Shown: positions 1 to 29,441 of the stretch, piece by piece
How the letters are laid out: each line of letters starts with the position of its first letter
How positions within the stretch are numbered: the first letter of the stretch is position 1
Origin: Bdellovibrionales bacterium
Lineage (GTDB): Bacteria > Bdellovibrionota > Bdellovibrionia > Bdellovibrionales > UBA1609
DNA length: 34,887 nucleotides
Assembly: GCA_041738165.1 (NCBI GenBank)
Contig: JBGSQJ010000340.1
Span: 1 to 34,887, forward strand
Direction of reading: 5' to 3'
Program-made: the position numbers and the translations under genes
Notes under the pieces: generated by a model
What the model saw: the letters and a program-made list of their open reading frames with translations, nothing else
Database searches by the model: none
Told to the model about the DNA's origin: nothing

Positions 1-228
1 AAGCTGCCCATCTAAATCTTTGACCTGAATCCAGCTGCCCTTGGGCCTCACCACAATAAATGGCATATAGCGACCCACCCGCCAGCTGGTTTCAGATTTT
101 GAACTGGGTTTGGCCTTTAAAGTGGTGGCTCTTTTGGTGCAAACTGATGCGGGCCACGCCGCAGCCCCTGTAACAAATAGCGCTGCCAGCAAAAAACCGC
201 GTGAAGAGCGATAAATCCAACCTCTCAA
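1..228 (-). CDS. Secreted SH3b-like domain protein, N-terminal part (the gene runs off the left edge of the window)
   Basis: Absent from the ORF track because the window edge truncates it. Reverse-strand translation from TTG (228..226) gives (M)RGWIYRSSRGFLLAALFVTGAAAWPASVCTKRATTLKAKPSSKSETSWRVGRYMPFIVVRPKGSWIQVKDLDGQL with no stop. It has a signal-peptide-like hydrophobic stretch followed by a bacterial SH3-like pattern. The TTG overlaps the xthA TGA (TTGA). The start codon is uncertain. Confidence 0.45.
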   Translation of the reverse strand, partial: MRGWIYRSSRGFLLAALFVTGAAAWPASVCTKRATTLKAKPSSKSETSWRVGRYMPFIVVRPKGSWIQVKDLDGQL

Positions 229-992
229 AGGGTCAGCTCAATCATCACAGGGCAGTGATCACTCCCCATCTGTTCATCTAAAATTTCGGCCACTTTCAAC
301 TTTGGCCTGAGGTCCTCAGAAATACAAATATGATCGATTCTCCAACCTCGGTTGCTAAACCTTGCGTTTTCATAATAGGCCCACCAGGTGAATTTGTTTG
401 CTGCCTCTGGGTGAAGTGCCCGAAAACTATCAACGAAGCCCTGTTCTAAAAAAGACCTCATCCATTGCCTTTCTTCTGGCAAAAAGCCACTCTCACCTTT
501 GACCTCATTTGGATCAAACACGTCATGATCTAAGTAGGCCACATTGTAGTCTCCAACAACAATCAACGATCGCCCTTGAGCTTTCAATCCGCAAAGGTGG
601 CGGCCAAATTTTCTTAGGAACTCTTGCTTGAATTTGTGCCGCACTTCGCCCGATGCGCCGTTTGGAAAGTAAACATTAAATAGCGTGAACGCTGGATACT
701 CGAGTACCACCATTCGGCCCTCTGCATCAAACTTGGGAATTCCAAAACCAGTTTGCATATTCAATGGAGATTCACGGGCGTAAATGACCGTCCCCGAATA
801 ACCCGGCTTTGCCGCCGAGGACCAAAACGTTTTCCATCCAAGCGGAAAAGCCAAAGCATCTTCAAGTTGATCGGGATGACACTTGGTCTCTTGCAAGCAC
901 ACAAAGTCGGCGCCCGACGACTCAAGAAATTCCCAGAATCCCTTTTGCGCTACGGAGCGCAATCCATTCACATTCCAAGAGATGACCTTCAC
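225..992 (-). CDS. xthA: Exodeoxyribonuclease III (ExoIII/APE family AP endonuclease)
   Basis: Family motifs VISWNVNGLRS, CLQETK, GDYNV and GSDHCP are present. The ORF-track start at 1055 is a TTG. The GTG at 992 (VKVISWNVNG), with GGGGGA 7 nt upstream, matches the usual ExoIII N-terminus and leaves a 74-nt divergent intergenic region with the peroxiredoxin gene. ATG 1043 and TTG 1055 are alternative starts. Confidence 0.9.
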   Translation of the reverse strand: MKVISWNVNGLRSVAQKGFWEFLESSGADFVCLQETKCHPDQLEDALAFPLGWKTFWSSAAKPGYSGTVIYARESPLNMQTGFGIPKFDAEGRMVVLEYPAFTLFNVYFPNGASGEVRHKFKQEFLRKFGRHLCGLKAQGRSLIVVGDYNVAYLDHDVFDPNEVKGESGFLPEERQWMRSFLEQGFVDSFRALHPEAANKFTWWAYYENARFSNRGWRIDHICISEDLRPKLKVAEILDEQMGSDHCPVMIELTL

Positions 993-1066
993 TTGATGAT
1001 CCCCCAAAACTGTGGCAGTTGAGAACAGGTCAATAAAACCCATACCACTATTCAAGGAGTCACACC

Positions 1067-1591
1067 ATGCCTATGATCGGTCAACCAGCACCACAATTCG
1101 TAGCGCCCTCAGTTGTCGACGGCGGCGATTTCAAAGACATCAATTTGGCCGATTTCAAAGGCAAATGGGTCGTTCTTTTCTTTTATCCGCTCGATTTCAC
1201 ATTTGTTTGCCCAACTGAATTGACGCAATTTCGCGAACACATGAAGGCCTTTAAAGCTGAGGGCGCCGAAGTTCTGGGCTGCAGCATCGACAGTGTGCAC
1301 TCGCATAAACGCTGGATCAAAGATGACCTAGGAGATCTTGGCTATCCATTAATTGGAGATGTCACTAAGCGCGTGTCTAGAGATTATGGTGTTCTTCTTG
1401 AAGACAAAGGTTTTGCAACCCGTGGAACTTTCATCATTGATCCACAAGGGACTATCCAATACATGGGCATTCACAATCTGAACGTGGGCCGAGATGCCAA
1501 TGAGATTCTGCGGGTCCTTCAAGGCCTGAAATCTGGGGAACTTTGTGCAGCAGGCTGGAAAAAGGGCGACAAATTTGTTGCAACCAAGTGA
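1067..1591 (+). CDS. ahpC: Typical 2-Cys peroxiredoxin (AhpC/Tsa family)
   Basis: The peroxidatic Cys motif FYPLDFTFVCPTE and a resolving Cys in GELCAAGWKKG are present. AAGGAG lies 7 nt upstream of the ATG. Confidence 0.92.
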   Translation: MPMIGQPAPQFVAPSVVDGGDFKDINLADFKGKWVVLFFYPLDFTFVCPTELTQFREHMKAFKAEGAEVLGCSIDSVHSHKRWIKDDLGDLGYPLIGDVTKRVSRDYGVLLEDKGFATRGTFIIDPQGTIQYMGIHNLNVGRDANEILRVLQGLKSGELCAAGWKKGDKFVATK

Positions 1592-2771
1592 TCTCGCATC
1601 ACCTGGAGTTCAAGAATTCTATCAAACGGTAAATCAAACGGCGCGCGAGACCTTTTTGGGTCTTGCCGCTTGCCCTGAAATCGATTGGCCAAAGATTCTC
1701 TCACCTTCGAAAATCCAACTATCAAATATGGTTTTCGAACAGGCTCAGTCGATCGTTCAGTCGCTGTGGAACCTCAGCTGCCAACCGCCCTATCAGGCTC
1801 AGTTTCTAGACCCTATTGATGAAAAAACCCACCATGATTCGGTGCTCATGGCCTATGACTTTCATTTGGATTCAACCGGTCAACTCAAACTCATAGAGAT
1901 CAACACGAATGCTTCGGGATTCTTACTTGTTTCGCTTCTCGAAATGGTTCATTTTAAAAAAACCATCGTCAATTACACCCCACTCACAGCGCTCAAGACG
2001 TCGTTTGAACTGGCGCTGGAAAAATGGGGAGCCGATCCCAAACAAAATGTGAAGAGCGCTCTCACCGATGAAGACTGGCGTGGTCAACGAATGCTGCCAG
2101 AATTTTACATGTATCAAGAATGGTTCAAGTCTTTTGGGTGGGACTGCGAAATCGCAGAATCGAAAGATTTCAAATTTCAAAATCACGAGCTGACTTTGCC
2201 TGGCCCGAGCCGCCCTATCCAATTGGTTTACAATCGAACCACCGACTTTCACTTTGAAAAAGAAATTCATTTGGCACTCAAAAATACATATGCCGCGGGT
2301 GCGGCTTGCATCACACCCACCCCTAAGGCCTACCGCTTATTGGCCGACAAGCAGCGAATGACCGAGTGGAGTCGCCCAGGGGCCCTCGAGAGCTGGAAAT
2401 TGCCGGAGACTCAAGTGCAAGCGATTCAAAGCGCATTGCTCAGGTCGTACACTCAGGTTGACTTTGAATCTTCGGATCAAATTTGGAGCGAGAGAAAAAA
2501 ATATTTCTTTAAACCCAGACGCTCTCACGGCGGAAAATCGGTTTACCGCGGATCGAGCATCTCAAAGACCGTTTTTGAGCGCCTGATGTCTGAACCGTCG
2601 ACTATTATTCAAGAGCATTGTCCGCCATCCGAGGTCGATGGATGGAAGTTCGACCTGCGCTTTTTTGTGTTCAAAGATCAAATTCAACTCTCTGTCGCTC
2701 GCATGTACCGTGGCCAAGTTACTAATTTCTCTAGTGATCTCGGCGGCTTCACTTTAGTCGAGTTCACCTGA
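1545..2771 (+). CDS. Glutathionylspermidine-synthase-like (YgiC/YjfC-type) ATP-grasp amidoligase, substrate unknown
   Basis: The motif order is that of GspS-type ATP-grasp enzymes. MAYDFHLDSTGQLKLIEINTNASG (compare RxDxxxD..G..KLLExNADTPT) comes first, then FFKPRRSHGGKSVY, IIQEHCP, DLRFFVF and VTNFSSDLGGF at the C-terminus. The start is uncertain. GTG 1545 has GGGGA upstream and overlaps ahpC by 47 nt. TTG 1575/1578/1656 and ATG 1728 are alternatives. The segment KIQLSNMVFEQAQSIVQSL resembles the YgiC N-terminal region, which argues for a start upstream of 1728. Confidence 0.7.
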   Translation: MQQAGKRATNLLQPSDLASPGVQEFYQTVNQTARETFLGLAACPEIDWPKILSPSKIQLSNMVFEQAQSIVQSLWNLSCQPPYQAQFLDPIDEKTHHDSVLMAYDFHLDSTGQLKLIEINTNASGFLLVSLLEMVHFKKTIVNYTPLTALKTSFELALEKWGADPKQNVKSALTDEDWRGQRMLPEFYMYQEWFKSFGWDCEIAESKDFKFQNHELTLPGPSRPIQLVYNRTTDFHFEKEIHLALKNTYAAGAACITPTPKAYRLLADKQRMTEWSRPGALESWKLPETQVQAIQSALLRSYTQVDFESSDQIWSERKKYFFKPRRSHGGKSVYRGSSISKTVFERLMSEPSTIIQEHCPPSEVDGWKFDLRFFVFKDQIQLSVARMYRGQVTNFSSDLGGFTLVEFT

Positions 2772-2831
2772 CGTTTAAGTCTCATTTCAACTCGAGTCTG
2801 GACGCACATCGTCCGATAAATAAACTGAACC

Positions 2832-4670
2832 ATGAGCTTAAGAAAAAAGTCCCCATCTTCGGCCAAGTCATCTTATGAGAGCTTTTCGCAGCTTGATGGC
2901 CAACACAGCTGGCAATCCGCCGTACCTGAAGGTTCCGTTTTATATCCGGTGCGAAAGCTTTCGGGGGGCCGAGTCTCCTACTTCAATTTCGACTTGGCCC
3001 GAGAGATGGGGCTCATTGCGCGCAATCACCCAAGCGAACTGAATGCGGAATTAGAAAAGACTCTGCTCAATACTTTTTGCCTACGCATCATCAATGAGTA
3101 CGATCAAGAACACGGCTTGAATGTCGCAGACAAAAATCTAAAAGAACACCCCTACATGGCGACCCGATACCTGCAGCTTCAACACACCGACAAAAGCGGC
3201 CGAACCAGTGGCGATGGTCGCTGCATCTGGAATGGCGAGTTCAAGAGTTCGTCAGGTGTCTGGGACGTGTCGAGCCGAGGCACGGGCGTGACTTCGCTCG
3301 CACCCGGCGTGGTGGAAGCTGGCAAACCCCTGAAGTCTGGCAACACCGATCACGGTTACGGTTGCGGAATGGCAGAAATCGATGAACTCTACGGCGCCGC
3401 CATACTTGCTGAAATATTTCATCGCAATGGTATCTCCACCGAGCGCGTTCTCGCTGTCATCGATATTGGAAAAGGCGTCGGAATCGGAGTGCGGGCGGCA
3501 CCCAATTTGGTTCGCCCCGCTCACCTGTTCTTGTATCTGAAGCAAAATCGTTTTGAACCACTCAAAGCCGCAACTGACTACCTGATTTCTCGGCAGTTCA
3601 AAAATGGCGAGTGGCAAGTTAAACCCAGTAGCTATCGCCGCTACAGACAGATGTTGAGTCTTGTTGTGCGGGATTTTGCAAAGTTCGCAGCCTATTTGGA
3701 GCGCGACTATATATTTGCGTGGCTCGATTGGGATGGCGACAACGTGCTCGCCAATGCGGGTATCATCGACTATGGGAGCGTTCGCCAGTTTGGGCTCAGG
3801 CACGACCAATACCGCTATGATGATGTCGATAGAATGTCGACAAACCTCAATGAGCAAAAAGCCAAAGCGGCCCAAATTGTTCAAACTTTTGCTCAAATGG
3901 TCGACTACTTAGAAACCGGTTCGAAAAAAGCGTGGGCGAAGTTCAGCAAGTCTCGGGCCGTGGCTGAGTTCAACAAGCGCTTTGAATATCACTCACTCGA
4001 AAGATTTCTTTACCAACTTGGCCTTCCCAAGCCTCATCAGCGTATTTTGCTTAGGAGTCACCGAAGAAAAGTTGAAAACCTTTTTCAAATTCATTGTGAC
4101 CTAGAAAAAACCAAGACCTACAAACGCCTAGCCAAAGTTCATGATGGCGTGCACCGCCCTGCCATCTTCAACATGAGACGAGTTTTAAGTTCAATGACTG
4201 AGGCACTTGCCGAATTGCCGATTGAGCTTTGTGGGCCGGTTGACACCGAGGAATTTTTTTCGTGGATGGTCTCAAGTCAGGCTGCACCACGAGATCGAAA
4301 ATTGAGAGCAAATGTTCGGCGCAAGATTGAAGCTTGGCAACAAGCCTATTTTTCGCTTTTGCGTGTCGTGACCACACCTGACACCTGGGAGCCAACTCTC
4401 GCGGCTATGCACTCTCGCGCAATGAAGATCAATGACCCAAAACGAATTACGGGCAATGCTCTTATTCACATTGTCGATGAAATCTTGAAGTTCAGAAGAA
4501 GAACTTTGAGCGACAGTGAGATTCAGCTTGCCATTGACCTGCTTATTAAGTCTCAAACCCTAAATCCAGATTATGAGGGGCCCGCAAAACCCGTAAATGG
4601 GGATCTGCCACCGCCAAAACTCATGCGCAGCTTCATGGCCGTTGTACGTGGTTACGGCGAAGACATTTAG
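2832..4670 (+). CDS. Divergent SelO/YdiU (UPF0061)-like kinase-fold protein, putative protein nucleotidyltransferase
   Basis: By-eye alignment to E. coli YdiU gives four matches. SGRTSGDGRCIWNGE aligns with AGQLGDGRGILLGE, and WDVSSRGTGVT with WHLKGAGLTP. VRAAPNLVRPAHLF aligns with MRVAPSHLRFGHFE, and DWDGDNVLANAGIIDYG with HGVMNTDNMSLLGLTLDYG. The protein is longer than YdiU and much diverged from it. Confidence 0.65.
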   Translation: MSLRKKSPSSAKSSYESFSQLDGQHSWQSAVPEGSVLYPVRKLSGGRVSYFNFDLAREMGLIARNHPSELNAELEKTLLNTFCLRIINEYDQEHGLNVADKNLKEHPYMATRYLQLQHTDKSGRTSGDGRCIWNGEFKSSSGVWDVSSRGTGVTSLAPGVVEAGKPLKSGNTDHGYGCGMAEIDELYGAAILAEIFHRNGISTERVLAVIDIGKGVGIGVRAAPNLVRPAHLFLYLKQNRFEPLKAATDYLISRQFKNGEWQVKPSSYRRYRQMLSLVVRDFAKFAAYLERDYIFAWLDWDGDNVLANAGIIDYGSVRQFGLRHDQYRYDDVDRMSTNLNEQKAKAAQIVQTFAQMVDYLETGSKKAWAKFSKSRAVAEFNKRFEYHSLERFLYQLGLPKPHQRILLRSHRRKVENLFQIHCDLEKTKTYKRLAKVHDGVHRPAIFNMRRVLSSMTEALAELPIELCGPVDTEEFFSWMVSSQAAPRDRKLRANVRRKIEAWQQAYFSLLRVVTTPDTWEPTLAAMHSRAMKINDPKRITGNALIHIVDEILKFRRRTLSDSEIQLAIDLLIKSQTLNPDYEGPAKPVNGDLPPPKLMRSFMAVVRGYGEDI

Positions 4671-4707
4671 CTTGGCCTAGCGCTTAAATTCACCTATTTT
4701 GGCAGGC

Positions 4708-5682
4708 ATGTGGATAGTCACCGGAGCAACCGGATTTATTGGTAGTGCGCTCTGCTGGGAGCTGAATGAAAGTGGTCATACAGACCTACTGCTCGTCGAT
4801 CATATCCCACCAAGCGAGCGGCCCCAGATCTTGTCTAAACGGCAATTCGTGGATTTTGTTTCGGCCGATCAGCTTCTCTTGGACCTAAAGGCCGCGCCCT
4901 GGGCCAACAAAATCAAAGGTATTCTTCACATGGGAGCCTGTTCAACCACAACAGAAACCAATGAGGCCTATCTAACAAAAAATAATTTTGAATACACTCA
5001 AGTGCTGTGGAACTTTTGTACGGAAAAAAATATTCCATTTATTTATGCCAGCAGCGGGGCCTGTTACGGTGATGGCAAAAAGGGGTTTGACGATAAAACC
5101 GACTCGCGGATTTTTGAGCCGCTAAATCTCTATGGCTGGTCAAAGTTAAAATTTGATATTTGGGCCAGTGAGCAAAAGGCCGCGCCACCACGTTGGTATG
5201 GGCTGCGCTTTTTCAACGTCTATGGCCCCAACGAATATCACAAGGGCGAGCAGGCATCCGTCGTGTTCAAAGCTTTCAATCAAATTCGCGAGACTGGCCA
5301 GTTGAAACTGTTTCGCTCGCACAACACAAAATTTGCCGATGGTGAACAGCTACGTGACTTCGTTTACATAAAAGACATTATCGAATGGATGAGCCAATTG
5401 ATGATTTGCGAAGAGGTCCCATCTGGAATTTATAATATGGGATTTGGCAAAGCGCGAACTTGGCTCGATTTAGCGCGAGCCGTATTTAAAAACCTCAATG
5501 TCGAACCCAAGATTGAGTGGATGGATGTCCCTGCAAATATTCGCGATCAGTATCAGTATTTCACTCAAGCCAAAATGCAGCGCTGGATCAACGCCTCTAA
5601 TCTTAGGCCTCATTGGAATCTAGAAGACGGGATAGCGGACTACGTTAATCATTTCTTAAAAAATGAAGACCCCTATTTATGA
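4708..5682 (+). CDS. hldD: ADP-L-glycero-D-manno-heptose 6-epimerase
   Basis: MWIVTGATGFIGS (Rossmann motif), YGWSKLKFD, RFFNVYGPNEYHKGEQASVVF and QYFTQA are collinear with E. coli HldD/RfaD. ATG 4708 is preferred over the TTG at 4699. The stop overlaps the next gene (ATGA). Confidence 0.9.
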   Translation: MWIVTGATGFIGSALCWELNESGHTDLLLVDHIPPSERPQILSKRQFVDFVSADQLLLDLKAAPWANKIKGILHMGACSTTTETNEAYLTKNNFEYTQVLWNFCTEKNIPFIYASSGACYGDGKKGFDDKTDSRIFEPLNLYGWSKLKFDIWASEQKAAPPRWYGLRFFNVYGPNEYHKGEQASVVFKAFNQIRETGQLKLFRSHNTKFADGEQLRDFVYIKDIIEWMSQLMICEEVPSGIYNMGFGKARTWLDLARAVFKNLNVEPKIEWMDVPANIRDQYQYFTQAKMQRWINASNLRPHWNLEDGIADYVNHFLKNEDPYL

Positions 5683-7406
5683 CTGAGTCCACAAAGGCCA
5701 AAATTCCCAGGCACCTTCGCAAGTTTATAGTCGAACAAAACTACTCGCGCTACACGCCCGAAGATCAAGCGATTTGGCGATTTATTATGAGGCAACTCAT
5801 TCAATATCTCTCCGTGCATGCGCATGACTGCTATCTTGACGGCCTAAAAAGTACGGGCATTTCGCCCGATTCCATTCCAGATATCGATGTCATGGATCAG
5901 CGCCTTGAGGATTTCGGCTGGAGTGCCGTCCCCGTTAGTGGATTTATTCCTCCCGCCGCGTTTATGGAAATGCAAAGCCTAGGGGTGTTGCCAATTGCCA
6001 GCGATTTACGGGCGCTTTCTCACTTGATGTATACACCTGCACCCGACATAGTGCATGAGGCCGCCGGACATGCCCCTATTTTGGTGCACCCCGAGTTTTC
6101 TTCTTACCTGCACCAGTATGGAGAAGTCGCGCGGCGGGCCATCTTGAGCCGAGAAGATTTAGATCAATACGAGGCCATTCGTATTTTAAGTGATGTTAAA
6201 GAAGATCCGAGATCTACAGAGGCCGAAATCCAAGCCGCTGAATTGAAACTCAATGAAGTAAACTCAAAAATGTCTGGAGTTTCTGAGGCCGGGCTGCTTT
6301 CTAGAATGAATTGGTGGACAGCCGAGTATGGCCTTGTCGGAGATCTGAAAAATCCAAAGATTTTTGGAGCTGGACTTCTTTCGTCGGTGGGCGAATCTAG
6401 GCTTTGTCTGAGTGACAAAGTAAAAAAAATTCCACTGACTGTGGATTGCGTCGATGTCGGATACGATATCACCGAGCCTCAACCTCAACTCTTCGTTACA
6501 TCTGATTTTTCACACCTCACGGAGGTCCTCAATCAATTGGCCGAGCGCTTGGCCTTTAAAAAGGGCGGCACATCCGGGCTCGCAACGGCTCTCAAGGCGA
6601 AAACGGTCAATACAGTCATGCTCGATTCTGGACTTCAAGTTTCAGGTCAGCTTGAGTCTTTTTTAAGTTCAGGGTCCACCGTAGAATTTATTCGGTTCAC
6701 TGGTCCGGTACAGCTGAGCTATCAAGATTGTGAGCTCAGCGGCCATGGCACCAAAACTCATGCTGCGGGGTTCTCATCTCCGCTAGGACTTCTCGCAGAC
6801 GGTTCAAGGCCAAGCGACAAGTCATTTAGAAGTGGCGAGCGAATCAGATTGAACTTTCAAAGCGGAATTGCAGTCGATGGCGAAGTGACGGGCGAGATTC
6901 GAAAAAATGGCAAGCTGATTGTGCTGAACCTAAGCAAAGCCACTGTGAAGCGACAAGAACAGTTGCTTTACTCACCCGACTGGGGCCCATTTGATATGGC
7001 CATTGGAGAGAGTGTAAACTCAGTGTTTGCGGGTCCCGCGGACAGGTCTCGCTTCGGAGCAACAGACGAGTTCGTCACGAAACAGGTTCCGCCACGAAAT
7101 TACACCAAAGAGCAGCTATCTCTTCACGATCTTTACCGAAATGTCCGCAGGCTTCGCGACGAGCGGACCACGCTTTCTCAAAGTCAAACTCAAGGTCGGT
7201 TTGACGACTTGGTTGACACCTACTTGAAGATCTCCCAAGACGAGTGGCTTCCCGGCATAGAACTTTTGGAAATAGCAAGTGAGGCCGGACTTTCGGGCGC
7301 CAAATTTGATCTACTAAACCGACAACTATTGCCTGAGAACTTCAAATCGCAATTCGTAAGTGAAGCCATCCGCGATGGTCTCGAGTTGATCAGTCGCACA
7401 AAATGA
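5679..7406 (+). CDS. phhA: Aromatic amino acid (phenylalanine-4-) hydroxylase family protein, long form with a C-terminal extension of about 270 aa
   Basis: The iron-ligand motifs are present: PDIVHEAAGHAPIL (2 His), NWWTAEYGL (Glu) and FGAGLLSSVGES. These lie in the first ~300 aa. The remaining ~270 aa carry no motif I recognise. There are ATGA overlaps with both neighbouring genes. Confidence 0.8.
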   Translation: MTESTKAKIPRHLRKFIVEQNYSRYTPEDQAIWRFIMRQLIQYLSVHAHDCYLDGLKSTGISPDSIPDIDVMDQRLEDFGWSAVPVSGFIPPAAFMEMQSLGVLPIASDLRALSHLMYTPAPDIVHEAAGHAPILVHPEFSSYLHQYGEVARRAILSREDLDQYEAIRILSDVKEDPRSTEAEIQAAELKLNEVNSKMSGVSEAGLLSRMNWWTAEYGLVGDLKNPKIFGAGLLSSVGESRLCLSDKVKKIPLTVDCVDVGYDITEPQPQLFVTSDFSHLTEVLNQLAERLAFKKGGTSGLATALKAKTVNTVMLDSGLQVSGQLESFLSSGSTVEFIRFTGPVQLSYQDCELSGHGTKTHAAGFSSPLGLLADGSRPSDKSFRSGERIRLNFQSGIAVDGEVTGEIRKNGKLIVLNLSKATVKRQEQLLYSPDWGPFDMAIGESVNSVFAGPADRSRFGATDEFVTKQVPPRNYTKEQLSLHDLYRNVRRLRDERTTLSQSQTQGRFDDLVDTYLKISQDEWLPGIELLEIASEAGLSGAKFDLLNRQLLPENFKSQFVSEAIRDGLELISRTK

Positions 7407-8176
7407 AAATACATGTGGTTTTGGTACGATCTGAATATGAGGGCAACGTCGGGTCAAGTGCCCGCTCTGCCGCCAATATGGGCGCCGATTCCCTTATTTT
7501 GATTGCCCCTCAGGTTGATCATCTTGCACACGAATCCAGGCAAATGGCCGCTGGTGCCCAAGAAATGTTGAAGAGCGCCCGAGTGTACTCAGATTGGAAC
7601 AGTTTCTACTCTGCAGAAGGTCAGGGCGTTCGCATCGCCTTTTCACGGCGAGACGGAAAAAGGCGCAAAGCGATCGAGTGGTCTCACGCAGGAACTTCTT
7701 TGATCAATCGCGAGAGCACCGATCACCTTTACCTCATATTTGGGCCCGAAGCGGACGGCTTGGATCACGAAGATTTGGCGTTCGTCAATCTGACCTGCTC
7801 TTTGCCCACATTCGGAAATTTTGCCAGCTTCAATTTGTCTCAAGCCGTCATCGTCGCATTGACGGTGCTTCAACTCCAAACAATGAAATCGTCACCACCT
7901 ACGAATGAAGAAAATCCGCCAGCGCCATTTTATTTTCCAGACGACTTAATTAAGAAATGGCTGACTCAAATTGGATTTGATATTCAAGCTCGCAAAGCCA
8001 GTGCGTATTTGACTCTAAAGCGTCTTTTTTTATTGAATCAACCCACAAAGCACGAAATCAAAGTGCTCGAAGCCACACTTCAACAGACGCTGAGAAAACT
8101 CGATGAAGCCTCATTTGGGCTTTCTTTTGAACAGATTGCTGACCACCGCAGTGATATCGTCAGTGAAGATATCTAA
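7403..8176 (+). CDS. trmJ: SpoU/TrmJ-family tRNA 2'-O-methyltransferase
   Basis: The N-terminus IHVVLVRSEYEGNVGSSARSAANMGADSLILIAP and the later LIFGPEADGL and NLSQAV are SPOUT/TrmJ-like, and there is a C-terminal extension as in TrmJ. Confidence 0.75.
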   Translation: MKIHVVLVRSEYEGNVGSSARSAANMGADSLILIAPQVDHLAHESRQMAAGAQEMLKSARVYSDWNSFYSAEGQGVRIAFSRRDGKRRKAIEWSHAGTSLINRESTDHLYLIFGPEADGLDHEDLAFVNLTCSLPTFGNFASFNLSQAVIVALTVLQLQTMKSSPPTNEENPPAPFYFPDDLIKKWLTQIGFDIQARKASAYLTLKRLFLLNQPTKHEIKVLEATLQQTLRKLDEASFGLSFEQIADHRSDIVSEDI

Positions 8177-10048
8177 TTTTTGGTTTTTACGAGACTCAGC
8201 CGCGCCGCCCTGAATCTCCCGCCGCGCTTCAATGAAAGTCGGGTCAAGCTGAAGGGCCCGCTCGAAAAATGACGGGGCGGTGGCGTCGCCCATTTGACGC
8301 TTCAAAAGTCCCATCGCCATGTAATAGTAAGGAGTGCGGCGATCTTCCGCTGGCAGACTCTCGAGTCCCCTTGAAAATTCATGAAGGCCAGATTGCCCAT
8401 CAAATGATTTGGCTTTCAACGAGGCCCAAACTGTCAATAGATACTGCCTGGATGATGGCATCACCTGTTCGGCTTTGCCGAGCTGCTCAAGAGCGCCCCG
8501 AAAATTCCCCTTTTTGATTAAATCCAATGCCGTCGTCACATAGACACTTGAACGTCTCAGCTTGGTGTCTTGCTCTGTTTTGATTTCTTCAAAGAGCTCC
8601 GCGCGCCGACGCTCGTCGACCATTATGTCTCTGGCTTTGGTCACCAATTCAAAACATTTGGTGCAGAATTCGACCAACTCAGCGGACGAATCCGCAGGTA
8701 GGGCCTTTGGATTGCTCGATCTGACATAATCTTGGTAGATTTTTTCAATAAAAGCGGGTGAAGCCGAATCTGAAGCGCCAAAATATGCGAACACCTGATC
8801 GGGCCGACGATCTTTAAGAGTCTCAAAGACCTTCTTGTATCGATCAAGAGCGGCTTGTTCACGCCCGGCTCGTTTTTCATCTTCGAAAATTAACACCCGC
8901 ATCAGCACGAGGCGATGAATGCAGCGATACACCAAGTCAGCTTTCGTCTCATCTGTCTTTAAACAGGTCGAAATCGACTTTCGATCTTCTACGGCCTTTC
9001 GAAAGTCATTCATTTCAAAATATTCAGGGCTATTGAACACTTGGTTCAAAACGTCGACAAACCCAACAACTCGAAGTGGCGAATCCAATACATCTTTGTA
9101 AAAGCTCCTTAAGTAGTCTAACGCCTTAGACTCATCAAAAATTTCTGAAAGATAGCTCATGAACTCGTACATATCCACAGGGTCCGCGTTGCTCTCTACC
9201 GCCACCTCGCCCAACGCAAAGCTCAAATTGATGGCACCCGACTGACAGATGCTCTTCATATCCGCCAAAATCTGAGCTCGTTGAGCCACCGCCATAGCGT
9301 GGGGGCTGACAAGACCCGCCTCGACAAGATCTGTGAGCACAAATTTCATTTCCGTTTTTTGCTTAAAAGACTTCCAATCATCGCCGTGCAAGAGGCCATT
9401 GGCGATCAAGGCCTCGATGCTTCGCTGCCGAGACTGTTCGGAGTCCAACTCTGCGATTTTTCCATCTTTGAGTTTGGCGCCAAATATTTCTCCCGACTCA
9501 CTTGCAATCGTTAGGTCACCTGACAGACCTACTTCCATAAGAAACGTAAGGATATAGGGGAGATCATAACCCGTAATTCCATCCAGTCGCTCAACGGCTT
9601 TCGCACGCTCGCGAAGACTCGTAATATGGCGAAGTAAAAGCGAATGAACCGTCCACCTTTCGACGCCAATGATATTCTCAAATCCATTTGAAATTGCAGC
9701 CTTGATTTCTTCTAGGTCAAAAGGCTTAGTCAAATAGGCGATCGCTCCGCATTTTCCTTTGGCTTCTTCTGCAAAAGACTTGTCTTTGAAAACTCCACTA
9801 ATCAGAATCACAGGTCCGTCGGCAAACTTCGTTTTGCGCATCTCTTCGACCAGGTCCACGCCGCTCATCTTGGGCAAAAGCACATCGACAATGGCCCCTT
9901 GAATGTATTGGAGTTTTGATAAGCTCAAAGCGTCTGCCGGTCGATTGGCAACCACGGGGCGTAGACCCAAACGTTTGACCACTTCAGATAGCACTTGTGT
10001 CGTGGCTTTGTCGTCATCCACTATAAGCACTTTGGTGACATTACTCAT
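8111..10048 (-). CDS. Response regulator with receiver, PATAN/DUF4388-like and C-terminal TPR domains
   Basis: The receiver (REC) shows KVLIVDDD..., an acceptor Asp in AIVDVLLPKMSG, and a conserved Lys in AYLTKPF. The DUF4388-like segment is GYDLPYILTFLMEVGLSGDLTIASESGEIFGAKLKDGKI...LVEAGLVSPH. The C-terminus has TPR-like helices (YYMAMGLLKRQMGDATAPSFFERALQLDPTFIEA). ATG 10048 is preferred over the TTG at 10051. Confidence 0.8.
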   Translation of the reverse strand: MSNVTKVLIVDDDKATTQVLSEVVKRLGLRPVVANRPADALSLSKLQYIQGAIVDVLLPKMSGVDLVEEMRKTKFADGPVILISGVFKDKSFAEEAKGKCGAIAYLTKPFDLEEIKAAISNGFENIIGVERWTVHSLLLRHITSLRERAKAVERLDGITGYDLPYILTFLMEVGLSGDLTIASESGEIFGAKLKDGKIAELDSEQSRQRSIEALIANGLLHGDDWKSFKQKTEMKFVLTDLVEAGLVSPHAMAVAQRAQILADMKSICQSGAINLSFALGEVAVESNADPVDMYEFMSYLSEIFDESKALDYLRSFYKDVLDSPLRVVGFVDVLNQVFNSPEYFEMNDFRKAVEDRKSISTCLKTDETKADLVYRCIHRLVLMRVLIFEDEKRAGREQAALDRYKKVFETLKDRRPDQVFAYFGASDSASPAFIEKIYQDYVRSSNPKALPADSSAELVEFCTKCFELVTKARDIMVDERRRAELFEEIKTEQDTKLRRSSVYVTTALDLIKKGNFRGALEQLGKAEQVMPSSRQYLLTVWASLKAKSFDGQSGLHEFSRGLESLPAEDRRTPYYYMAMGLLKRQMGDATAPSFFERALQLDPTFIEARREIQGGAAESRKNQKLDIFTDDITAVVSNLFKRKPK

Positions 10049-10095
10049 CAATGTTATATCGGAGTTTTTCAGCTAAAAATCGACTCGACCAGAGA

Positions 10096-10515
10096 CTAGC
10101 TTGCCTGCCCGGGATGATGTTTCTTCCAGGCTTCAGTGATCTTTTTAGTTAGGGTCTCAATATTAAAGGGCTTCACCACATATCCACTGACACCGCACCC
10201 CGCCGCCTCGATAACAGCCCCTTTTTCAGACTCAGTTGTCACTAGCAAAAAGGGCAAGGCTTCAAATTCTGGGAGTGCTCGAACTTGCTTTAAAAAATCA
10301 AGGCCACTTGGACCAGGCATATTCAAATCTGACAAAACCAATCCAACTGCATTTGGAGTTTTAACAAAAAATTTCAATTTTCCCAAAGCCTCAATCGCGT
10401 CCTCAGAGGTGGTGATTTTAGAAAACCCCATCCTCTGAAGCGAGTCGACGACAATTCGACGAATATTGAGTGAGTCATCTACAACCAAAACATGTGTGTC
10501 TTTTCCAAAGCCCAT
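10096..10515 (-). CDS. CheY-like single-domain response regulator
   Basis: Receiver motifs HVLVVDDS, VLSDLNMPGPSG and YVVKPF are present. ATG 10515 is preferred because it forms a TAATG stop/start overlap with the upstream kinase gene. The ORF-track start at 10551 lies inside that gene. Confidence 0.9.
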   Translation of the reverse strand: MGFGKDTHVLVVDDSLNIRRIVVDSLQRMGFSKITTSEDAIEALGKLKFFVKTPNAVGLVLSDLNMPGPSGLDFLKQVRALPEFEALPFLLVTTESEKGAVIEAAGCGVSGYVVKPFNIETLTKKITEAWKKHHPGQAS

Positions 10516-12407
10516 TAAGCACTCCTCAATACTGATTCTATCTGGTTCCAATGGGGCAAGTGAAGATGAATTTTGGTGCCGATGCCCACATTCGATTCAA
10601 TATTAAAAGTGCCTTTCATCTTCAACACTTCGGCGCGCAAAGCATCTAGACCAACGCCACGTCCAGAGTACTCCCCCACCTCAGTTCGAGACGAAAAACC
10701 CGTCCAGGCCACGGCCTGTACCACTTCCGCGTCTGTCAGAGCCGAGATGTCTTTGTCGGGAAATTTTTCACCTAATTTTTCTCTTATGACGGCAGGGTCA
10801 ATACCTCGGCCATTGTCTTCTATCAACAGGGAGAAACCATCATCACTCAGCGTTGCCGTGACCGAGATTCTGCCGGCCTCGGGTTTTTCAGCCCATAAGC
10901 GTTCATCGGGGGTTTCAATTCCGTGATCAACCGCATTTCGAAATGCATGAACCAAGCTTGAGAAAACATCCGAATAAGCGCCTGCCGGCAGTCTTATTTC
11001 ATTGTCATTGATAAGCAAGGGTTCTACTTTTTTTCCTAAGTTTTCACTGACCGACTGCACGAGACTGTCATAGTAAGAAAGTAAACTTTTTAGCTCTACA
11101 TTTAAAAAGATGTCCTCAGCCTTGGACTTGATCGTTTCAGCCCCTTTGACTTTTGAAAGATCGTCAATCCACTCGAGCGCTTGACCCATAGACACTTCAA
11201 TCCGGCGATCTTGCTCACTCTTAGATCTTTCAATAACGCCTTCATTTTTCTTCAAAAAATCATCGTATTCTTTACGAAGAGTCTCAAGTGACACTTTGTA
11301 CTCTTCAAGGGCCGAGGGATCATTGACTCCAGTGCCCTTAAACGGTTCCAAAATTCCTTGTGAAACACGGGTCGCCAAGCGCAAGGGCCGAAGTGAAAAT
11401 ATTCCAGCTTCGCCTTCTATAGTGTGCAAAATTCGAAAGCTTTCCTGAACACTCTCTTGAGTGTCAATGCGAGTCACGAGTTGATTCAATTTCGGAAAGG
11501 TTTCTTCGACCCCAGCTAAAAATCTTGTGAACTGGTTTTTATTTTTAATGTATTTAATGATCATGCTGGCATACTGACGCTCTTCTTCGAGTGCAAGTTG
11601 AGCTTTTCGCTCTTCGGTCTTGTCTGTTGCCACAACCACTACACTGCCAATTTTGTTTGCCTCATCTCGAATGGGGTAATACTCCAGAGGCACATACTTA
11701 TTAGAATCACCTTCATAGGTTTGAGGGCCAAGAGCTTTCATGTCTTCAAATGGCAACATCTCTTGAAATACAGCGTCGATCCATTTTTTAAATGTACCCA
11801 GCTCAGCGTCCGGTACTCCTAATACCTTCCACGCCGTTTGACCTTTAGGAGTCACCGCCAACATCGCCTCGCAAGCCCGAGTGAAGACATCGCTGCAGGC
11901 GCCAGTGGAGTCGAACGTGAAAAACCCCTGTCCCAGTGAGTTCAAGATGGCCTGAAGGGTTTGATTGACTCTACGTAATTCGAGAGTTCTTTCTTCAACT
12001 AACTTTTCGAGATTTTTTGCATATTCTTCTTTTTGAGCCAGCTCAGATCGATATTTTGAGTGAAGGGCTTCCTCAAGGCTCACATCTCTTACAAAAAAGG
12101 CCCACGTGACTTCCGTCATAGGGCGAATTGCCAATTGCAGGCGCCCAACCCTCTCGTCCTTGGTCAATTTAAATCCGGTTTCGATAAATGGCGTTGGAGC
12201 ATCCCGGCCCGCAGATTTTGCATCGAACGGAAAAATACCTGGCTCATCAATTTGAATAAGGTCAGACAACAGCGCCTTTCCCATGATCCTTCTTGCGGAA
12301 GTTCCACAAAAAACGGCCGCCGCGTCATTGCAATACTCGACCTTACCGTCGGGACCGACAATAAATGCAGCATCTAAAATAGAATCAAAAACCGAGTAAT
12401 CAACCAT
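10515..12407 (-). CDS. PAS-PAS-Hpt(P1)-dimerisation-HATPase(P4) CheA-like histidine kinase lacking a CheW-like P5 domain
   Basis: The Hpt His lies in SFRILHTIEGEAGIFSL. The CheA-type catalytic core is LGKKVEPLLINDNEIRLP...LVHAFRNAVDHGIETPDERL...LLIEDNGRGID...SGRGVGLDALR...GTKIHLHLP. The protein ends about 12 aa after that, so there is no room for a P5 domain. The N-terminal ~270 aa are PAS-like (two modules). Confidence 0.8.
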   Translation of the reverse strand: MVDYSVFDSILDAAFIVGPDGKVEYCNDAAAVFCGTSARRIMGKALLSDLIQIDEPGIFPFDAKSAGRDAPTPFIETGFKLTKDERVGRLQLAIRPMTEVTWAFFVRDVSLEEALHSKYRSELAQKEEYAKNLEKLVEERTLELRRVNQTLQAILNSLGQGFFTFDSTGACSDVFTRACEAMLAVTPKGQTAWKVLGVPDAELGTFKKWIDAVFQEMLPFEDMKALGPQTYEGDSNKYVPLEYYPIRDEANKIGSVVVVATDKTEERKAQLALEEERQYASMIIKYIKNKNQFTRFLAGVEETFPKLNQLVTRIDTQESVQESFRILHTIEGEAGIFSLRPLRLATRVSQGILEPFKGTGVNDPSALEEYKVSLETLRKEYDDFLKKNEGVIERSKSEQDRRIEVSMGQALEWIDDLSKVKGAETIKSKAEDIFLNVELKSLLSYYDSLVQSVSENLGKKVEPLLINDNEIRLPAGAYSDVFSSLVHAFRNAVDHGIETPDERLWAEKPEAGRISVTATLSDDGFSLLIEDNGRGIDPAVIREKLGEKFPDKDISALTDAEVVQAVAWTGFSSRTEVGEYSGRGVGLDALRAEVLKMKGTFNIESNVGIGTKIHLHLPHWNQIESVLRSA

Positions 12408-12873
12408 TTTTTAAAAACTTAAAGTATTTAGCTTCAATGACATCAATTTCCATGACCTCACCCGAATCGTCCTTAACTTCAGACGGCGGCGTGACCTCCG
12501 AACCATTGAACTCTTTGCCATTCATAAAAAGGACCATTCGCTCGTCACCCGAGGCATCCGAATAGTAAGGCACATAAAAACTCTCAATGATCGTGCCGTC
12601 AGGCAGAAAACCCGCAACCATATTGATTTGGTCAACGATGATCTTTGGGCAGTGCCTGACAGAAAGCTTCAAGCTCGTTGGAAAGGCCTTTATCCATTTG
12701 ATCCACTCTCGAATCCCAACTGAATTGATGGCTGTCACACCTTCTAAATCGAGATTGACTTCGGCCGCAGAGCCCAAGTTCGGCGCAACAAAACTCGCAT
12801 CCTCATCGATCCCGCCCTTTACAAAGATGACGGCGATATTGCCTTCTGGCTTAACTTCTATCGTTAGTGCCAT
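12400..12873 (-). CDS. STAS-domain protein (anti-sigma-factor-antagonist-like) with a C-terminal extension
   Basis: VNLDLEGVTAINSVGIREW aligns with SpoIIAA LNLEDLSFMDSSGLGVI, and the Ser aligned to the phosphorylated Ser58 is kept. AAGGAGG lies 7 nt upstream of the ATG. The stop overlaps the next gene's start by 8 nt (ATGGTTGA). Confidence 0.7.
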   Translation of the reverse strand: MALTIEVKPEGNIAVIFVKGGIDEDASFVAPNLGSAAEVNLDLEGVTAINSVGIREWIKWIKAFPTSLKLSVRHCPKIIVDQINMVAGFLPDGTIIESFYVPYYSDASGDERMVLFMNGKEFNGSEVTPPSEVKDDSGEVMEIDVIEAKYFKFLKNG

Positions 12874-13684
12874 TTGATTTTCCTCCTTCTATTTGAAACC
12901 AATGTATACTTTTGCCCATTTCTAATCTTTTTCTCTGACTCATTTTTCGCGGAAACACACAAACCGATGTGGTCTGAGATTGAGAGCTGACCCCCAAATA
13001 CAAACTCAAGCATGCATTGAGTATCATAAAGCTGCCTATGCCAGCTCCGCCAGTTCCAAAGTTCATGGTCTGGGCGGGCCCGCACAAAACGGTTTTCTGA
13101 ATTTTCTTTAAATAGCGCGGAATATTCAGCGCGCCAAATGGGTCGGTGCAAGCCACCGCAATTCGGTCTGCACTCTGACCTATTGAGAGCTGAGCCCGTC
13201 CGGCACGCTCTAATGTCACACGGTTGCCAACGCGCTCCACACCAGGACGTGTGACTTCATCCAAAAATGCAACGGGAGCGTTGTAAATAGCATTTGTAAA
13301 CAGTTCGTCGGTCACCTGCACAATGTCGTCTATCGTACTGGCCGTACACCCAATGTCCTGCAGACTCTGGCGCGTTGCCTCTAAGACCTCTGTCTTGGCA
13401 ATCGAGTCGTTGAACTCCAAATTGAGCACCGTGCAATCGAATTCGGATTTTGGCGACGGCGAGTTTGGATTCAGCACTGTTGAAAGTGGGAATTTCAAAT
13501 ACTGCTCTGGCGACGTCAAAATTAAATTTGCGGAGGCTCTCTCATCAACAATTTCGAATCGATTGGTCTGGCACACGTGGTGAACACCTTCAGTCAAGGC
13601 CCAAGTCAACACATCTTCAGGCGACATATCCGCGCCCTCAACGATCGGGCTTTGTAGAGATTTTGCTGCTCCACCCGCGCTCAT
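12851..13684 (-). CDS. GHKL-type ATP-binding protein, RsbW/SpoIIAB-like Ser kinase candidate, N-terminally extended
   Basis: There is an N-box-like VTDELFTNAIYNAP, a G1-like ACTDPFGAL and a G2-like FGTGGAGIGSF. At 277 aa it is longer than typical RsbW/SpoIIAB proteins. The ATG follows the upstream TAG by 1 nt. Confidence 0.55.
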   Translation of the reverse strand: MSAGGAAKSLQSPIVEGADMSPEDVLTWALTEGVHHVCQTNRFEIVDERASANLILTSPEQYLKFPLSTVLNPNSPSPKSEFDCTVLNLEFNDSIAKTEVLEATRQSLQDIGCTASTIDDIVQVTDELFTNAIYNAPVAFLDEVTRPGVERVGNRVTLERAGRAQLSIGQSADRIAVACTDPFGALNIPRYLKKIQKTVLCGPAQTMNFGTGGAGIGSFMILNACLSLYLGVSSQSQTTSVCVFPRKMSQRKRLEMGKSIHWFQIEGGKSNGTNDRS

Positions 13685-13685
13685 T

Positions 13686-15518: not shown

Positions 15519-15581
15519 ACAGGTACTGTATCGGAGCGCGACACTCAATCATTCAGTCATTTATATAATAAAAATAGTCAC

Positions 15582-16697
15582 TTAAGACCATAGGCGAGCC
15601 GATGCGAAGACATTGTCCCCGACGGCGCGATAGCGAATAGATTTGGCCACCGGAGCTTGGTCTAGACTTTTTAAGTTTAGAGACTTAGACCACGACTGGC
15701 CCTGCCCTAAAATCTGGTTACCCAAGAAAAGATAAAGCCGATCAACCAAAGAATTGTTCAAAAATTCTCCTATCGTAAACGCGCCCGCTTCCACATAAAC
15801 ACTAAAAATAGAGTTCTCGAGTAGAATTTTATGAAGGTCAGATGAATTGAACACGCCCTGCAGTTGAGGAAGAACCGCCAGCCGAACCCCCTTTGGAGCT
15901 TTAAGGCCCGATTTTGCTGTGATCAGTAGAATCGACTCAGGAGGCCGAATTTCTTGAAATCGAAACTTCAAAAAATTCTCAAGAATTCTACCCTTGGGAT
16001 CGAGAACAACAAGATTTTGAGGCTTGTCTTTGAAGCGATCAAATCGACAATTGAGCTGTGGGTTGTCGGCCATGATCGTCCCCGAACCGGTCAACACCGC
16101 ATCGTAACCACCCCGAAGCCATTGCCCCATCTTTCGGGCCCGAGGGTTGGTGATCCACTGGCTTTCACCATTGCCCAATGCCGTTTGCCCATCTAACGAT
16201 GTCGCCACTTTACAGGCGTAAAAAGGTCGCCCCTTTCTTTGATTGACTAAAAAGGCTTCGCAAATCTCTTCGAGTTCGAGCTGAAGTGATTTGAATTTTT
16301 CAACTTGAATTCCAGCCGCCTTAAGAATTTCACAGCCCTTGCCAGAGACCTGAGGATTAGGATCAGTAAGTCCGTATGTGACTTTGCCAATCGATGTTTT
16401 AGCCAGGGCCTTCGCGCAAGACGGCGTACGCCCTTCATGAGCACAGGGCTCAAGTGTGACAATCACATGGGCGCCTTTGAGTCTTGAAGAATCTTTGATT
16501 TGCCCCAAAGCCATGGCCTCGGCGTGCGCTTCTCCACACTTGGCATGATAGCCCTCAGACAAAACGCGGCCGCTTGAGTCTAATATCACACAACCAACCA
16601 TCGGGTTCGGAGACACAAAGCCAAAACCCTGCCTAGCCAAGCGAATAGCTCTGGCCATGGCCTGCTCGACTGTGATCGGACCCACTACGTCTGCCAA
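15582..16697 (-). CDS. ribD: Bifunctional riboflavin biosynthesis deaminase/reductase RibD
   Basis: The deaminase zinc motifs HAEAMAL and TLEPCAHEGRTPSCA are followed by a reductase half (KVATSLDGQTAL...). The start is uncertain: TTG 16697, GTG 16685 or ATG 16658. Confidence 0.9.
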   Translation of the reverse strand: MADVVGPITVEQAMARAIRLARQGFGFVSPNPMVGCVILDSSGRVLSEGYHAKCGEAHAEAMALGQIKDSSRLKGAHVIVTLEPCAHEGRTPSCAKALAKTSIGKVTYGLTDPNPQVSGKGCEILKAAGIQVEKFKSLQLELEEICEAFLVNQRKGRPFYACKVATSLDGQTALGNGESQWITNPRARKMGQWLRGGYDAVLTGSGTIMADNPQLNCRFDRFKDKPQNLVVLDPKGRILENFLKFRFQEIRPPESILLITAKSGLKAPKGVRLAVLPQLQGVFNSSDLHKILLENSIFSVYVEAGAFTIGEFLNNSLVDRLYLFLGNQILGQGQSWSKSLNLKSLDQAPVAKSIRYRAVGDNVFASARLWS

Positions 16698-25840: not shown

Positions 25841-26200
25841 ATGAAAATTGAAATGTTAAAAAGCAAACTTCACCGCGCGACGGTGACCGACGCCAATCTC
25901 AACTATGAAGGGTCCATTTCAATTGATCCCAAACTATGTGATGCAGCTCAGTTGATTCCGTTTGAAAAGGTGGAAGTGTATAACTGCAACAATGGCGAGC
26001 GATTTGCCACCTATGTCATATTTGGCAAAGACGGTGAAGTTTGCCTCAACGGCGCCGCCGCCAGGTTGGTGCACCCTGGAGACTTGGTGATTATCGCGTC
26101 TTACGCTAGTTTTGATCAATCCGAGGCGCTGGCCCACAAACCTAAATTGGTGATGCTTAACGACGACAATTCGATTCGCAAAATTCATTGTGACAAATAA
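25841..26200 (+). CDS. panD: Aspartate 1-decarboxylase
   Basis: [23 protein letters not shown] contains the Gly-Ser self-processing site. AAGGAA lies upstream of the ATG. Confidence 0.93.
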
Positions 26201-26361: not shown

Positions 26362-26548
26362 CAGAAGTGCTGTTTAGAGCTTGCCGACGGCTTGGCATTT
26401 AAACTCATCCTGTGCCCTTTGAGACTGCTTTTTCTTTTGAAATACTCCCGAGCGTGCGCTCATTTTTCATTCTTCATTAAGGCTCGTTCAATCAGAAAAA
26501 ACGCCGCCTAAAATCCTAGTGTATATTCCCTCAGTATCGGAGGCACAG

Positions 26549-29397: not shown

Positions 29398-29441
29398 ACC
29401 CATTTAATGAGCGCGAAATTTTCAATCGCGAGGTGCATAAA

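Follow-up and report, generated by a model that had tools for sequence, protein, structure and literature searches.

We analysed a 34,887-nucleotide (nt) stretch of DNA, hereafter the window, from a Bdellovibrionales bacterium (contig JBGSQJ010000340.1 of assembly GCA_041738165.1), and focused on two neighbouring plus-strand genes. ORF1 (1545..2771; 408 amino acids (aa) when read from the GTG at 1545) encodes a circularly permuted ATP-grasp carboxylate-amine ligase of the eukaryotic glutathione synthetase (GS)/GspS type. ORF2 (2832..4670; 612 aa) encodes a divergent kinase-fold protein of the SelO/YdiU family, a putative nucleotidyl (nucleoside monophosphate, NMP) transferase. As stated in the initial annotation, which saw in the pair a possible two-enzyme module for covalent modification, both genes lie on the same strand, and the spacer between them (2772..2831) is exactly 60 nt long. 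Profile and structure searches assigned neither protein to a different fold. The adjacency of the two genes gives no specific evidence for a joint module, because the junction is weak, insertions interrupt it, each gene also occurs alone, and the ligase was absent from the flanks of all 79 SelO-like loci outside the order. We consider it reasonably probable that the two proteins are separately acting, vertically inherited core enzymes, which stand side by side as members of a gene block conserved across the Bdellovibrionales.

The ATP-grasp ligase encoded by ORF1

The AlphaFold (AF2) model of ORF1 had a pLDDT of 93.6 and a pTM of 0.92. In Foldseek searches its top matches were eukaryotic-type GS structures (E 1e-16, query TM 0.54-0.67), followed by a second tier of GspS, YgiC, YjfC and trypanothione synthetase (E 1e-13 to 1e-10). 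Matches to 2io8, 7uka and 7uk6 had an E of 1e-13 and a TM of 0.53-0.58, a range that overlaps that of eukaryotic GS. The only PDB entries retrieved by the ORF1 family profile were homoglutathione and glutathione synthetases (E 7e-4 and 1.4e-3; about 260 residues aligned). Searches of the PDB with the single ORF1 and ORF2 sequences gave no useful match. In Pfam, the ATP-grasp matches of ORF1 remained below threshold (YheCD at 24.6 bits; TTL at 19.5 bits, gathering cut-off (GA) 20.1). Across 45 members of the family the matches were spread over YheCD, TTL, CP_ATPgrasp_2 and GSH_synth_ATP. CP_ATPgrasp_2 was matched weakly by 5 of the 45 and TTL by 11, the latter on the C-terminal ATP-grasp core. 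GSP_synth gave no match at E <=0.01 for ORF1 or any of the 45 relatives, and GSH_synth_ATP gave none for ORF1 and a single one in the family, with an E of 0.006.

The sequence motifs showed the same type of organization. The Mg/ATP element E118-x-N120 is located in KLIEINTNASG (residues 115-125; 1887..1919, plus strand), where E118, N120, T121 and N122 were invariant among the 45 family sequences. In the profile alignment, its counterpart in the homoglutathione synthetase 3kaj is IEMNTISTSF (also given as 'IEMNTIS'). The ATP-binding Lys323 and the glycine-rich lid loop are found in FFKPRRSHGGKSVY (residues 321-334; 2505..2546, plus strand). The GS segment KPQREGGGNNIY aligned opposite this stretch, with Ser327 of ORF1 at the position of the GS loop Glu. 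The further motifs IIQEHCP (354-360), DLRFFVF (370-376) and NFSSDLGGF (394-402) follow, and every motif quoted in the initial annotation for either protein was located at its expected position. The Mg element (118-120) thus precedes the Lys/Gly-loop (323-332). This permuted order, described earlier as a GspS-type layout, agrees with the structural matches to eukaryotic-type GS and GspS and with the weak CP_ATPgrasp_2 matches. The label 'GspS/YgiC-like ATP-grasp amidoligase' was essentially right. Its permuted ATP-grasp part was borne out; the specific GspS part found no GSP_synth match, and 'eukaryotic-GS-like' is slightly more accurate.

The residues that bind gamma-Glu-Cys in GS are the Arg of 'RSDY' and the 'EERN..Q' stretch, and the Glu of 'KPQREGGG' is the loop residue that serves Mg. 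At these sites ORF1 has Ala103 in place of the 'RSDY' Arg, and R179, G180, Q181, R182 and E186 in place of 'EERN..Q'. The 'YFR' Arg of GS is retained as R231 in the profile alignment. The GS substrate pocket thus appears mostly replaced, and ORF1 is probably not a true glutathione synthetase. Within the permuted GS/GspS ATP-grasp group it represents a new member restricted to one lineage; as far as seen, its family occurs in Bdellovibrionales alone.

Because the family sequences all keep the same ATP/Mg framework, ORF1 is likely to be an active carboxylate-amine ligase. In the expected reaction, a carboxylate would be activated as an acyl-phosphate and then joined to an amine. E118 and N120 would hold Mg, and K323 and the SHGGKS lid would hold ATP.

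The start codon of ORF1 may differ from the one listed. Alignments of its homologues (n=534) begin only at about residue 23 of the GTG-started form; the true start may therefore be a TTG at 1575 or 1578, overlapping the stop codon of the upstream peroxiredoxin gene. The overlap between the two genes would shrink from 47 nt with the GTG to 14-17 nt with the TTG starts. In the closest relative, too, a gene caller picked the long, overlapping form of the ligase.

The SelO-like protein encoded by ORF2

The assignment of ORF2 to the SelO/YdiU family was settled only by profile-profile alignment and fold search. The Pfam SelO profile (PF02696, UPF0061) matched at 27.6 bits against a GA of 22.8, covering only residues 191-534 in the C-lobe, and the NCBIfam YdiU model scored 29.9 bits against a cut-off of 431. 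A profile of 48 orthologues retrieved no SelO sequence from the PDB at E <=1. When the 48-sequence family alignment was compared with E. coli SelO by hhalign, however, the probability was 93.5% (E 2.4e-7, 315 columns). The AF2 model (pLDDT 84.2) matched YdiU/SelO alone below E 0.1 in Foldseek (8e-11 to 2e-8; target TM 0.62-0.73), and the next match, outside SelO, had an E of 0.11. These results support the earlier description of ORF2 as a strongly diverged SelO relative.

Homologues of ORF2 were numerous (n>3000), as were those of ORF1, which shows that both are real genes. Those of both ORFs that carried names came from metagenome-assembled genomes (MAGs) of Bdellovibrionales or Pseudobdellovibrionaceae, so that the window is part of the chromosome of an organism of this kind. 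When 1.84 billion representative proteins (50% clustering) were searched with a profile, only about 550 members of the ORF2 subfamily came up at E <=1e-3. By these sequence data the subfamily is a discrete, well-conserved clade, apart from the broad canonical SelO family. Cultured Bdellovibrio bacteriovorus strains carry members of it. Full-length members, scoring 630-710 bits with the family hidden Markov model, also occur in Bacteriovoracia and Oligoflexia and, sporadically, in MAGs of Gammaproteobacteria, Nitrospirota and Acidobacteriota.

Canonical SelO/YdiU enzymes are protein AMPylases/UMPylases with a kinase fold that bind ATP in a flipped orientation. To locate the corresponding residues, we mapped E. 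coli positions onto ORF2 with hhalign and MAFFT, taking the residue roles from a review and a YdiU preprint. Conservation was scored in 189 sequences of the subfamily, 110 from Bdellovibrionales and 79 from elsewhere; the nucleotide positions given for ORF2 are on the plus strand. The GDGR motif (residues 127-130; 3210..3221) contains R130, whose E. coli equivalent, R87, is a ligand of the beta/gamma-phosphates. RAAPNLVR (3492..3515), which overlaps the APNLVRPAHLF motif (223-233), contains R221 and R228. Their counterparts are R170/R177 in E. coli and R176/R183 in P. syringae, the arginines to which the buried gamma-phosphate of the flipped ATP is bound. Within DWDGDN...IIDYG (299-315; 3726..3776), D303 corresponds to the general base D246 of E. 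coli, and N304 and D313 to the metal ligands N247 and D256. D301 replaces E. coli N244, which contacts the AMP phosphate. R130, R221, R228, D301, D303, N304 and D313 were each invariant in 189/189 sequences. The catalytic residues expected from the initial annotation thus survived proper alignment.

Among the mapped catalytic positions, only the beta-3 site varied across the 189 sequences. In canonical SelO/YdiU this site is a Lys (K107 in E. coli, K113 in P. syringae) that is required and binds the gamma-phosphate; K107A was among the active-site mutants made. ORF2 has SSRGTG at residues 147-152, and both hhalign and MAFFT placed R149 opposite K107, as the earlier reading by eye had suggested for the Lys of the SelO LKGxG motif. 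The residue was Arg in 110/110 Bdellovibrionales and Cys in 69/79 of the other members, so the beta-3 Lys appears to be dispensable in this subfamily. Its role could be taken over by either of two conserved basic residues, K/R165 of the expanded loop or K/R121 of the Gly-rich region.

The second marked change was in the base-fixing loop. In E. coli this loop extends from K107 to R121, and D119 and G120 hold the base. Its counterpart in ORF2 (residues 149-180; 3276..3371) is 32 residues long, as it is in all 189 sequences, compared with 15 in E. coli, and is therefore 17 residues longer. D119 is replaced by C178 (Cys in 181/189) and R121 by M180, while G120 is retained as G179. The alpha-C Glu130 position of E. 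coli aligned with Ala189.

The C-terminal region also differed. ORF2 extends about 134 residues beyond E. coli SelO (612 vs 478), past the aligned core, and terminates in ...VVRGYGEDI. The subfamily end is conserved as ...GY(R/G)EDI, and the C-terminus of ORF2 carries no Ser/Cys tail comparable to the self-AMPylation/redox tail of SelO (...SCSS; Sec/Cys in eukaryotes). After DYG, the activation-loop-like segment VRQFGLRHDQYRYDDVDRMSTN (residues 317-338; 3780..3845) was highly conserved, with Y327, R328 and D331 among its invariant positions, yet it was predicted to be disordered with a pLDDT below 50. We regard it as a candidate substrate-binding or self-modification segment.

From these features, ORF2 would be an active nucleotidyl transferase that uses the flipped-nucleotide mechanism of SelO. 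A nucleoside triphosphate would bind in the flipped orientation. Its beta/gamma-phosphates would be held by R130, R221, R228 and, in the Bdellovibrionales clade, R149, and two metals by N304 and D313. D303 would activate the acceptor, and the nucleoside monophosphate would be transferred to it. Because the base-fixing loop is longer, Cys replaces Asp119 and the C-terminal tail is different, the donor and/or acceptor specificity probably differs from that of E. coli YdiU. ORF2 is a new variant within the SelO/YdiU superfamily.

Two distant full-length members of the subfamily, P0337 and P0339, had hydrophobic, signal-peptide-like leaders at their N-termini. Both retain the beta-3 Lys (VSSKGTG) and the base-fixing-loop Asp (YGDG). 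This suggests that these two positions change together and that some versions are exported.

Gene order and the surroundings of the two genes

The gene order was compared over about 200 related genomes, with loci rather than whole genomes as the unit scored; 80 SelO-like-anchored and 80 ligase-anchored loci were taken from species-representative genomes. In the window, an exonuclease III-like gene (Xth, 225-1055, minus strand) and an AhpC/Prx peroxiredoxin gene (Prx, 1067-1591, plus) lie upstream of the ligase. Downstream of the SelO-like gene are the ADP-heptose epimerase gene hldD (4699-5682, plus), a gene for a long aromatic amino acid hydroxylase (AAAH; 5679-7406, plus) and a SpoU methylase gene (7403-8176, plus). 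The HldD/AAAH and AAAH/SpoU junctions are 4-nt overlaps. This seven-gene block, with Xth on the opposite strand followed by Prx, ligase, SelO-like, HldD, AAAH and SpoU, recurs throughout Bdellovibrionales, from MAGs to the complete genomes of cultured Bdellovibrio bacteriovorus.

The junctions within the block were unequally preserved. In a tblastn-based analysis of 129 non-redundant loci, where direct adjacency meant a gap <450 bp, the ligase and SelO-like genes were directly adjacent in a fraction of 0.50 (103 assessable loci) and SelO-like and HldD in 0.51. Direct adjacency reached 0.92 for Prx and ligase in loci with Prx, 0.95 for HldD and AAAH, and 0.98 for AAAH and SpoU. In 91 of 94 loci, no more than 1.2 kb separated Xth from the ligase; many ligase loci have no Prx, and there Xth abuts the ligase directly. 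The ligase/SelO-like and SelO-like/HldD junctions are therefore the weakest two of this block, whose genes are unrelated in function.

In 29 loci, Bdellovibrio genomes included, an opposite-strand gene separated the ligase from the SelO-like gene. The distance between the two genes in B. bacteriovorus is 0.85-4.7 kb (L133, L138 and L142). An example of the inserted gene (4856-5725, minus strand, of locus L056) encodes a lipoprotein-like protein with a signal peptide and a Cys lipobox, which had no Pfam or NCBIfam match. The SelO-like gene seems to have an insertion hot spot on either side. The two genes also occurred without each other. Ten SelO-like loci had no ligase for at least 5.5 kb upstream, and about ten ligase loci had no SelO-like gene for at least 7.5 kb downstream. 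The pair lay about 20-50 kb apart on one contig in two assemblies and on separate contigs in three. Outside the order, no ligase was found in any of the 79 SelO-like loci (Bacteriovoracia, Oligoflexia, Gammaproteobacteria, Nitrospirota and Acidobacteriota; flanks of about 8 kb, with at least 5 kb on both sides in 42 of the 79). Three contigs with the typical block (Xth-Prx-ligase, with the SelO-like gene optional) are labelled as MAGs of Bacillota, Streptomyces griseus and Pseudomonadota (L121, L156 and L127, respectively). These labels are probably binning or taxonomy errors in public records.

In the sister classes the SelO-like gene has another neighbour. A Peptidase_S51 gene on the same strand (about 220 aa; Pfam Peptidase_S51 at 3e-26, distantly PepE/cyanophycinase-like) lies directly downstream of it in Bacteriovoracia and Oligoflexia. 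This pairing was present in all 64 assessable loci, with one additional locus in which the S51 gene is upstream. The loci fall within L159-L235; in L214 the SelO-like gene (7947-9785) is followed by the S51 gene (9779-10444), and the S51 gene of L160 is at 9807-10466. The next most frequent neighbour was found in only 30 of the 79 loci. Neither the window nor any of the Bdellovibrionales loci examined carries an S51 gene. As the S51 pairing stands out from the background and the ligase pairing does not, the peptidase would be a much stronger, better-supported candidate for a functional partner of the SelO-like protein than the ligase. OsmC was considered as a conserved peroxidase neighbour in Bacteriovoracia and rejected. 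Of three members of the upstream hydrolase cluster, the L165 protein showed OsmC but also matches alpha/beta hydrolase families, and those from L160 and L171 matched hydrolases only.

A divergent SelO-like paralogue (P0325, with DYG changed to DLS) was found in a natural-product-like cluster (L157:3625-11035). The cluster contains a type III polyketide synthase, an FAD halogenase/monooxygenase and an unknown ORF. A classical ATP-grasp_3/4 ligase gene is directly upstream of the paralogue and a MATE exporter gene directly downstream. A single metagenome scan for such paralogues recovered one further locus, L237, where the upstream gene encodes an EamA transporter and an ATP-grasp gene is lacking. 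A recurrent ATP-grasp/SelO-like pairing in the paralogue group was therefore rejected.

Otherwise the genes of the window have ordinary housekeeping functions, and a reading of the locus as a defence system was dropped, with no PADLOC match. The AAAH has 575 aa (NCBIfam PRK14056, 682 bits) and a large C-terminal extension past the Biopterin_H core. Elsewhere in the window (16685-18828, minus), 4-hydroxyphenylpyruvate dioxygenase and homogentisate-dioxygenase-like genes belong to Phe/Tyr catabolism. A signalling cluster (8111-15548, minus) includes two ORFs without a Pfam match (12400-13684). Also encoded there are a single-domain response regulator, a PAS histidine kinase, a HAMP-SpoIIE (PP2C) phosphatase and a 646-aa fusion protein in which a response regulator is joined to a long C-terminal stretch of uncharacterised nature. 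Two short plus-strand ORFs (26519-26878 and 27044-27439) resemble split halves of an HNH endonuclease, the second carrying DHIIPKALGG...ENL..LC..HN. Lying between panD (25841-26200) and a YgjP-like metallopeptidase gene, they may be a decayed or frameshifted mobile gene. A bacterial small signal recognition particle RNA (RF00169, 69 bits; 29302-29400, plus) lies immediately upstream of dnaX. It overlaps the first bases of the GTG ORF listed at 29388, so the dnaX start is probably further downstream.

Joint action or inherited neighbourhood, and relation to known systems

The identity of each protein has to be considered before that of the pair. ORF1 might simply be the glutathione synthetase of these bacteria, a eukaryotic-type analogue of GshB, as its top structural matches and the restriction of its PDB profile matches to homoglutathione and glutathione synthetases would suggest. 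The E-values of those profile matches were marginal, however, and GSH_synth_ATP was matched by just one family member. The presumed gamma-Glu-Cys-binding residues mapped to non-equivalents, the loop Glu is Ser327, and neither gshA nor another glutathione gene was found within the window. We regard this identity as highly improbable. We give even less credence to the idea that ORF2 became a catalytically dead pseudoenzyme when the beta-3 Lys was lost. Canonical SelO/YdiU does need this Lys, and the subfamily has Arg or, in most sister-clade members, Cys in its place. But the other phosphate-binding, metal-binding and catalytic residues are invariant in 189 sequences from several classes and phyla, a degree of conservation not expected at a dead site, and K/R165 or K/R121 could stand in for the Lys.

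That the ligase and the SelO-like protein form a dedicated two-enzyme modification module seems decidedly unlikely. In such a module, for example, nucleotidylation by one enzyme could prime a protein or peptide, onto which the other would ligate an amino acid or amine, by analogy with SidJ or TTLL chemistry. Several observations do weigh in its favour and against two independent enzymes. The order and orientation of the pair are kept in about 85% of the assessable Bdellovibrionales loci. In the window, co-transcription is plausible because the gap is only 60 nt and contains no terminator-like site; scans of the spacer for promoter-like and terminator-like sites were not above shuffled expectation. 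The inserted genes are compatible with a shared pathway, and the unrelated L157 locus has an ATP-grasp gene directly upstream of a SelO-like paralogue. Tight packing is uninformative here, however, because HldD, AAAH and SpoU overlap by 4 nt and yet are unrelated in function. The pair is preserved no better than SelO-like/HldD and far less well than the three other junctions, 29 loci carry an opposite-strand insertion, each gene is found with no partner nearby, and none of the 79 orthologous loci outside the order has the ligase in its flanks. The L157 arrangement did not recur in L237, the one further paralogue locus. The order is thus usually kept within Bdellovibrionales, but only inside the seven-gene housekeeping block. 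No such pairing was described in the literature searched, in line with the initial annotation, which knew of no function for it; nor did this literature contain a description of either subfamily. In neither the SidJ nor the TTL/TTLL system are a kinase fold and an ATP-grasp enzyme known to work as a pair.

A looser connection, through a co-regulated oxidative-stress cluster, also appears rather unlikely. Here the peroxiredoxin, the GS-like ligase and the SelO-like transferase would be co-transcribed to serve one stress response without acting on each other. The ligase would produce a thiol or another small protective peptide, and the SelO-like protein would regulate redox proteins by NMPylating them, in the manner of canonical SelO/YdiU. 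The Prx gene is directly upstream of the ligase ORF and overlaps it, and together with the 92% adjacency in loci with Prx this overlap may point to a thiol-peroxidase/GS-like-ligase link. Glutathione synthetases are the nearest structural relatives of the ligase. SelO/YdiU has been linked to redox homeostasis, and the neighbourhoods of canonical bacterial SelO genes are reported to be enriched in oxidative-stress genes (PMC13355359). In E. coli, btuE (glutathione peroxidase) is about 2.3 kb from selO, four genes away. On the other side, many ligase loci lack Prx and have Xth abutting the ligase, and the ligase lacks most of the residues with which GS binds its substrates. SelO-like orthologues in the sister classes have no conserved peroxidase neighbour, and Xth, HldD, AAAH and SpoU share no redox theme. 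A more speculative possibility is that the SelO-like protein is a nucleotidyl transferase of new specificity acting on peptide or amide-bond substrates, with 'writer' and 'eraser' partners for one small peptide or protein tag, which the SelO-like enzyme would activate or regulate: the GS-like ligase in Bdellovibrionales, the S51 peptidase in Bacteriovoracia and Oligoflexia, and the classical ATP-grasp enzyme in L157. Although very unlikely in our estimation, it would, if true, make the pair in the window one manifestation of a modification system of predatory bacteria that centres on a kinase fold and has yet to be described. Taking both sides into account, we infer that the two enzymes act separately and have been inherited together as members of the conserved block.

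Had the module idea held, it would have introduced a new way of pairing two ATP-using folds in covalent modification. As gene-order comparison gives it no specific support, effort on co-expression experiments seeking a joint product can be spared. The remaining interest lies in the S51 lead and in the unusual active site of the SelO-like protein, rather than in the ligase/SelO-like pair. This subfamily keeps the full catalytic core while dispensing with the beta-3 Lys and rebuilding the base-binding loop, and is thus a natural test case for the choice of nucleotide (AMP, UMP, NAD) and for Lys dependence in SelO enzymes. Its members in cultivable Bdellovibrio bacteriovorus make these questions experimentally tractable.

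Compared with known systems, ORF1 is structurally closest to eukaryotic-type GS and homoglutathione synthetase (2HGS, 1M0W, 3KAJ, 5OES). It shares their permuted topology, and their E-x-N Mg element and K-P-x-R-x-x-G-G lid loop align with its own. It differs from them in having only 12-16% identity, a length shorter by about 60-90 residues and Ser instead of the loop Glu. The GspS synthetase domain, YgiC, YjfC (2IO7/2IO8, 7UKA, 7UK6) and trypanothione synthetase belong to the same superfamily. ORF1 is close to YgiC in size, but it has no amidase domain and its Foldseek E-values against this group were weaker than those against eukaryotic GS. Unlike the TTL/TTLL ATP-grasp glutamylases, it has the permuted GS-type topology. 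The kinase-fold glutamylase SidJ is no structural relative of ORF2, whose relatives are SelO/YdiU only (E. coli YdiU 6K20/6LNA/9L29, P. syringae SelO 6EAC and human SELENOO). At about 15% identity, ORF2 departs from these enzymes in the beta-3 Lys, the Asp-Gly base-fixing loop and the C-terminal tail, but it has the same fold and retains the GDGR Arg, the two gamma-phosphate Arg residues, both metal ligands and the catalytic Asp.

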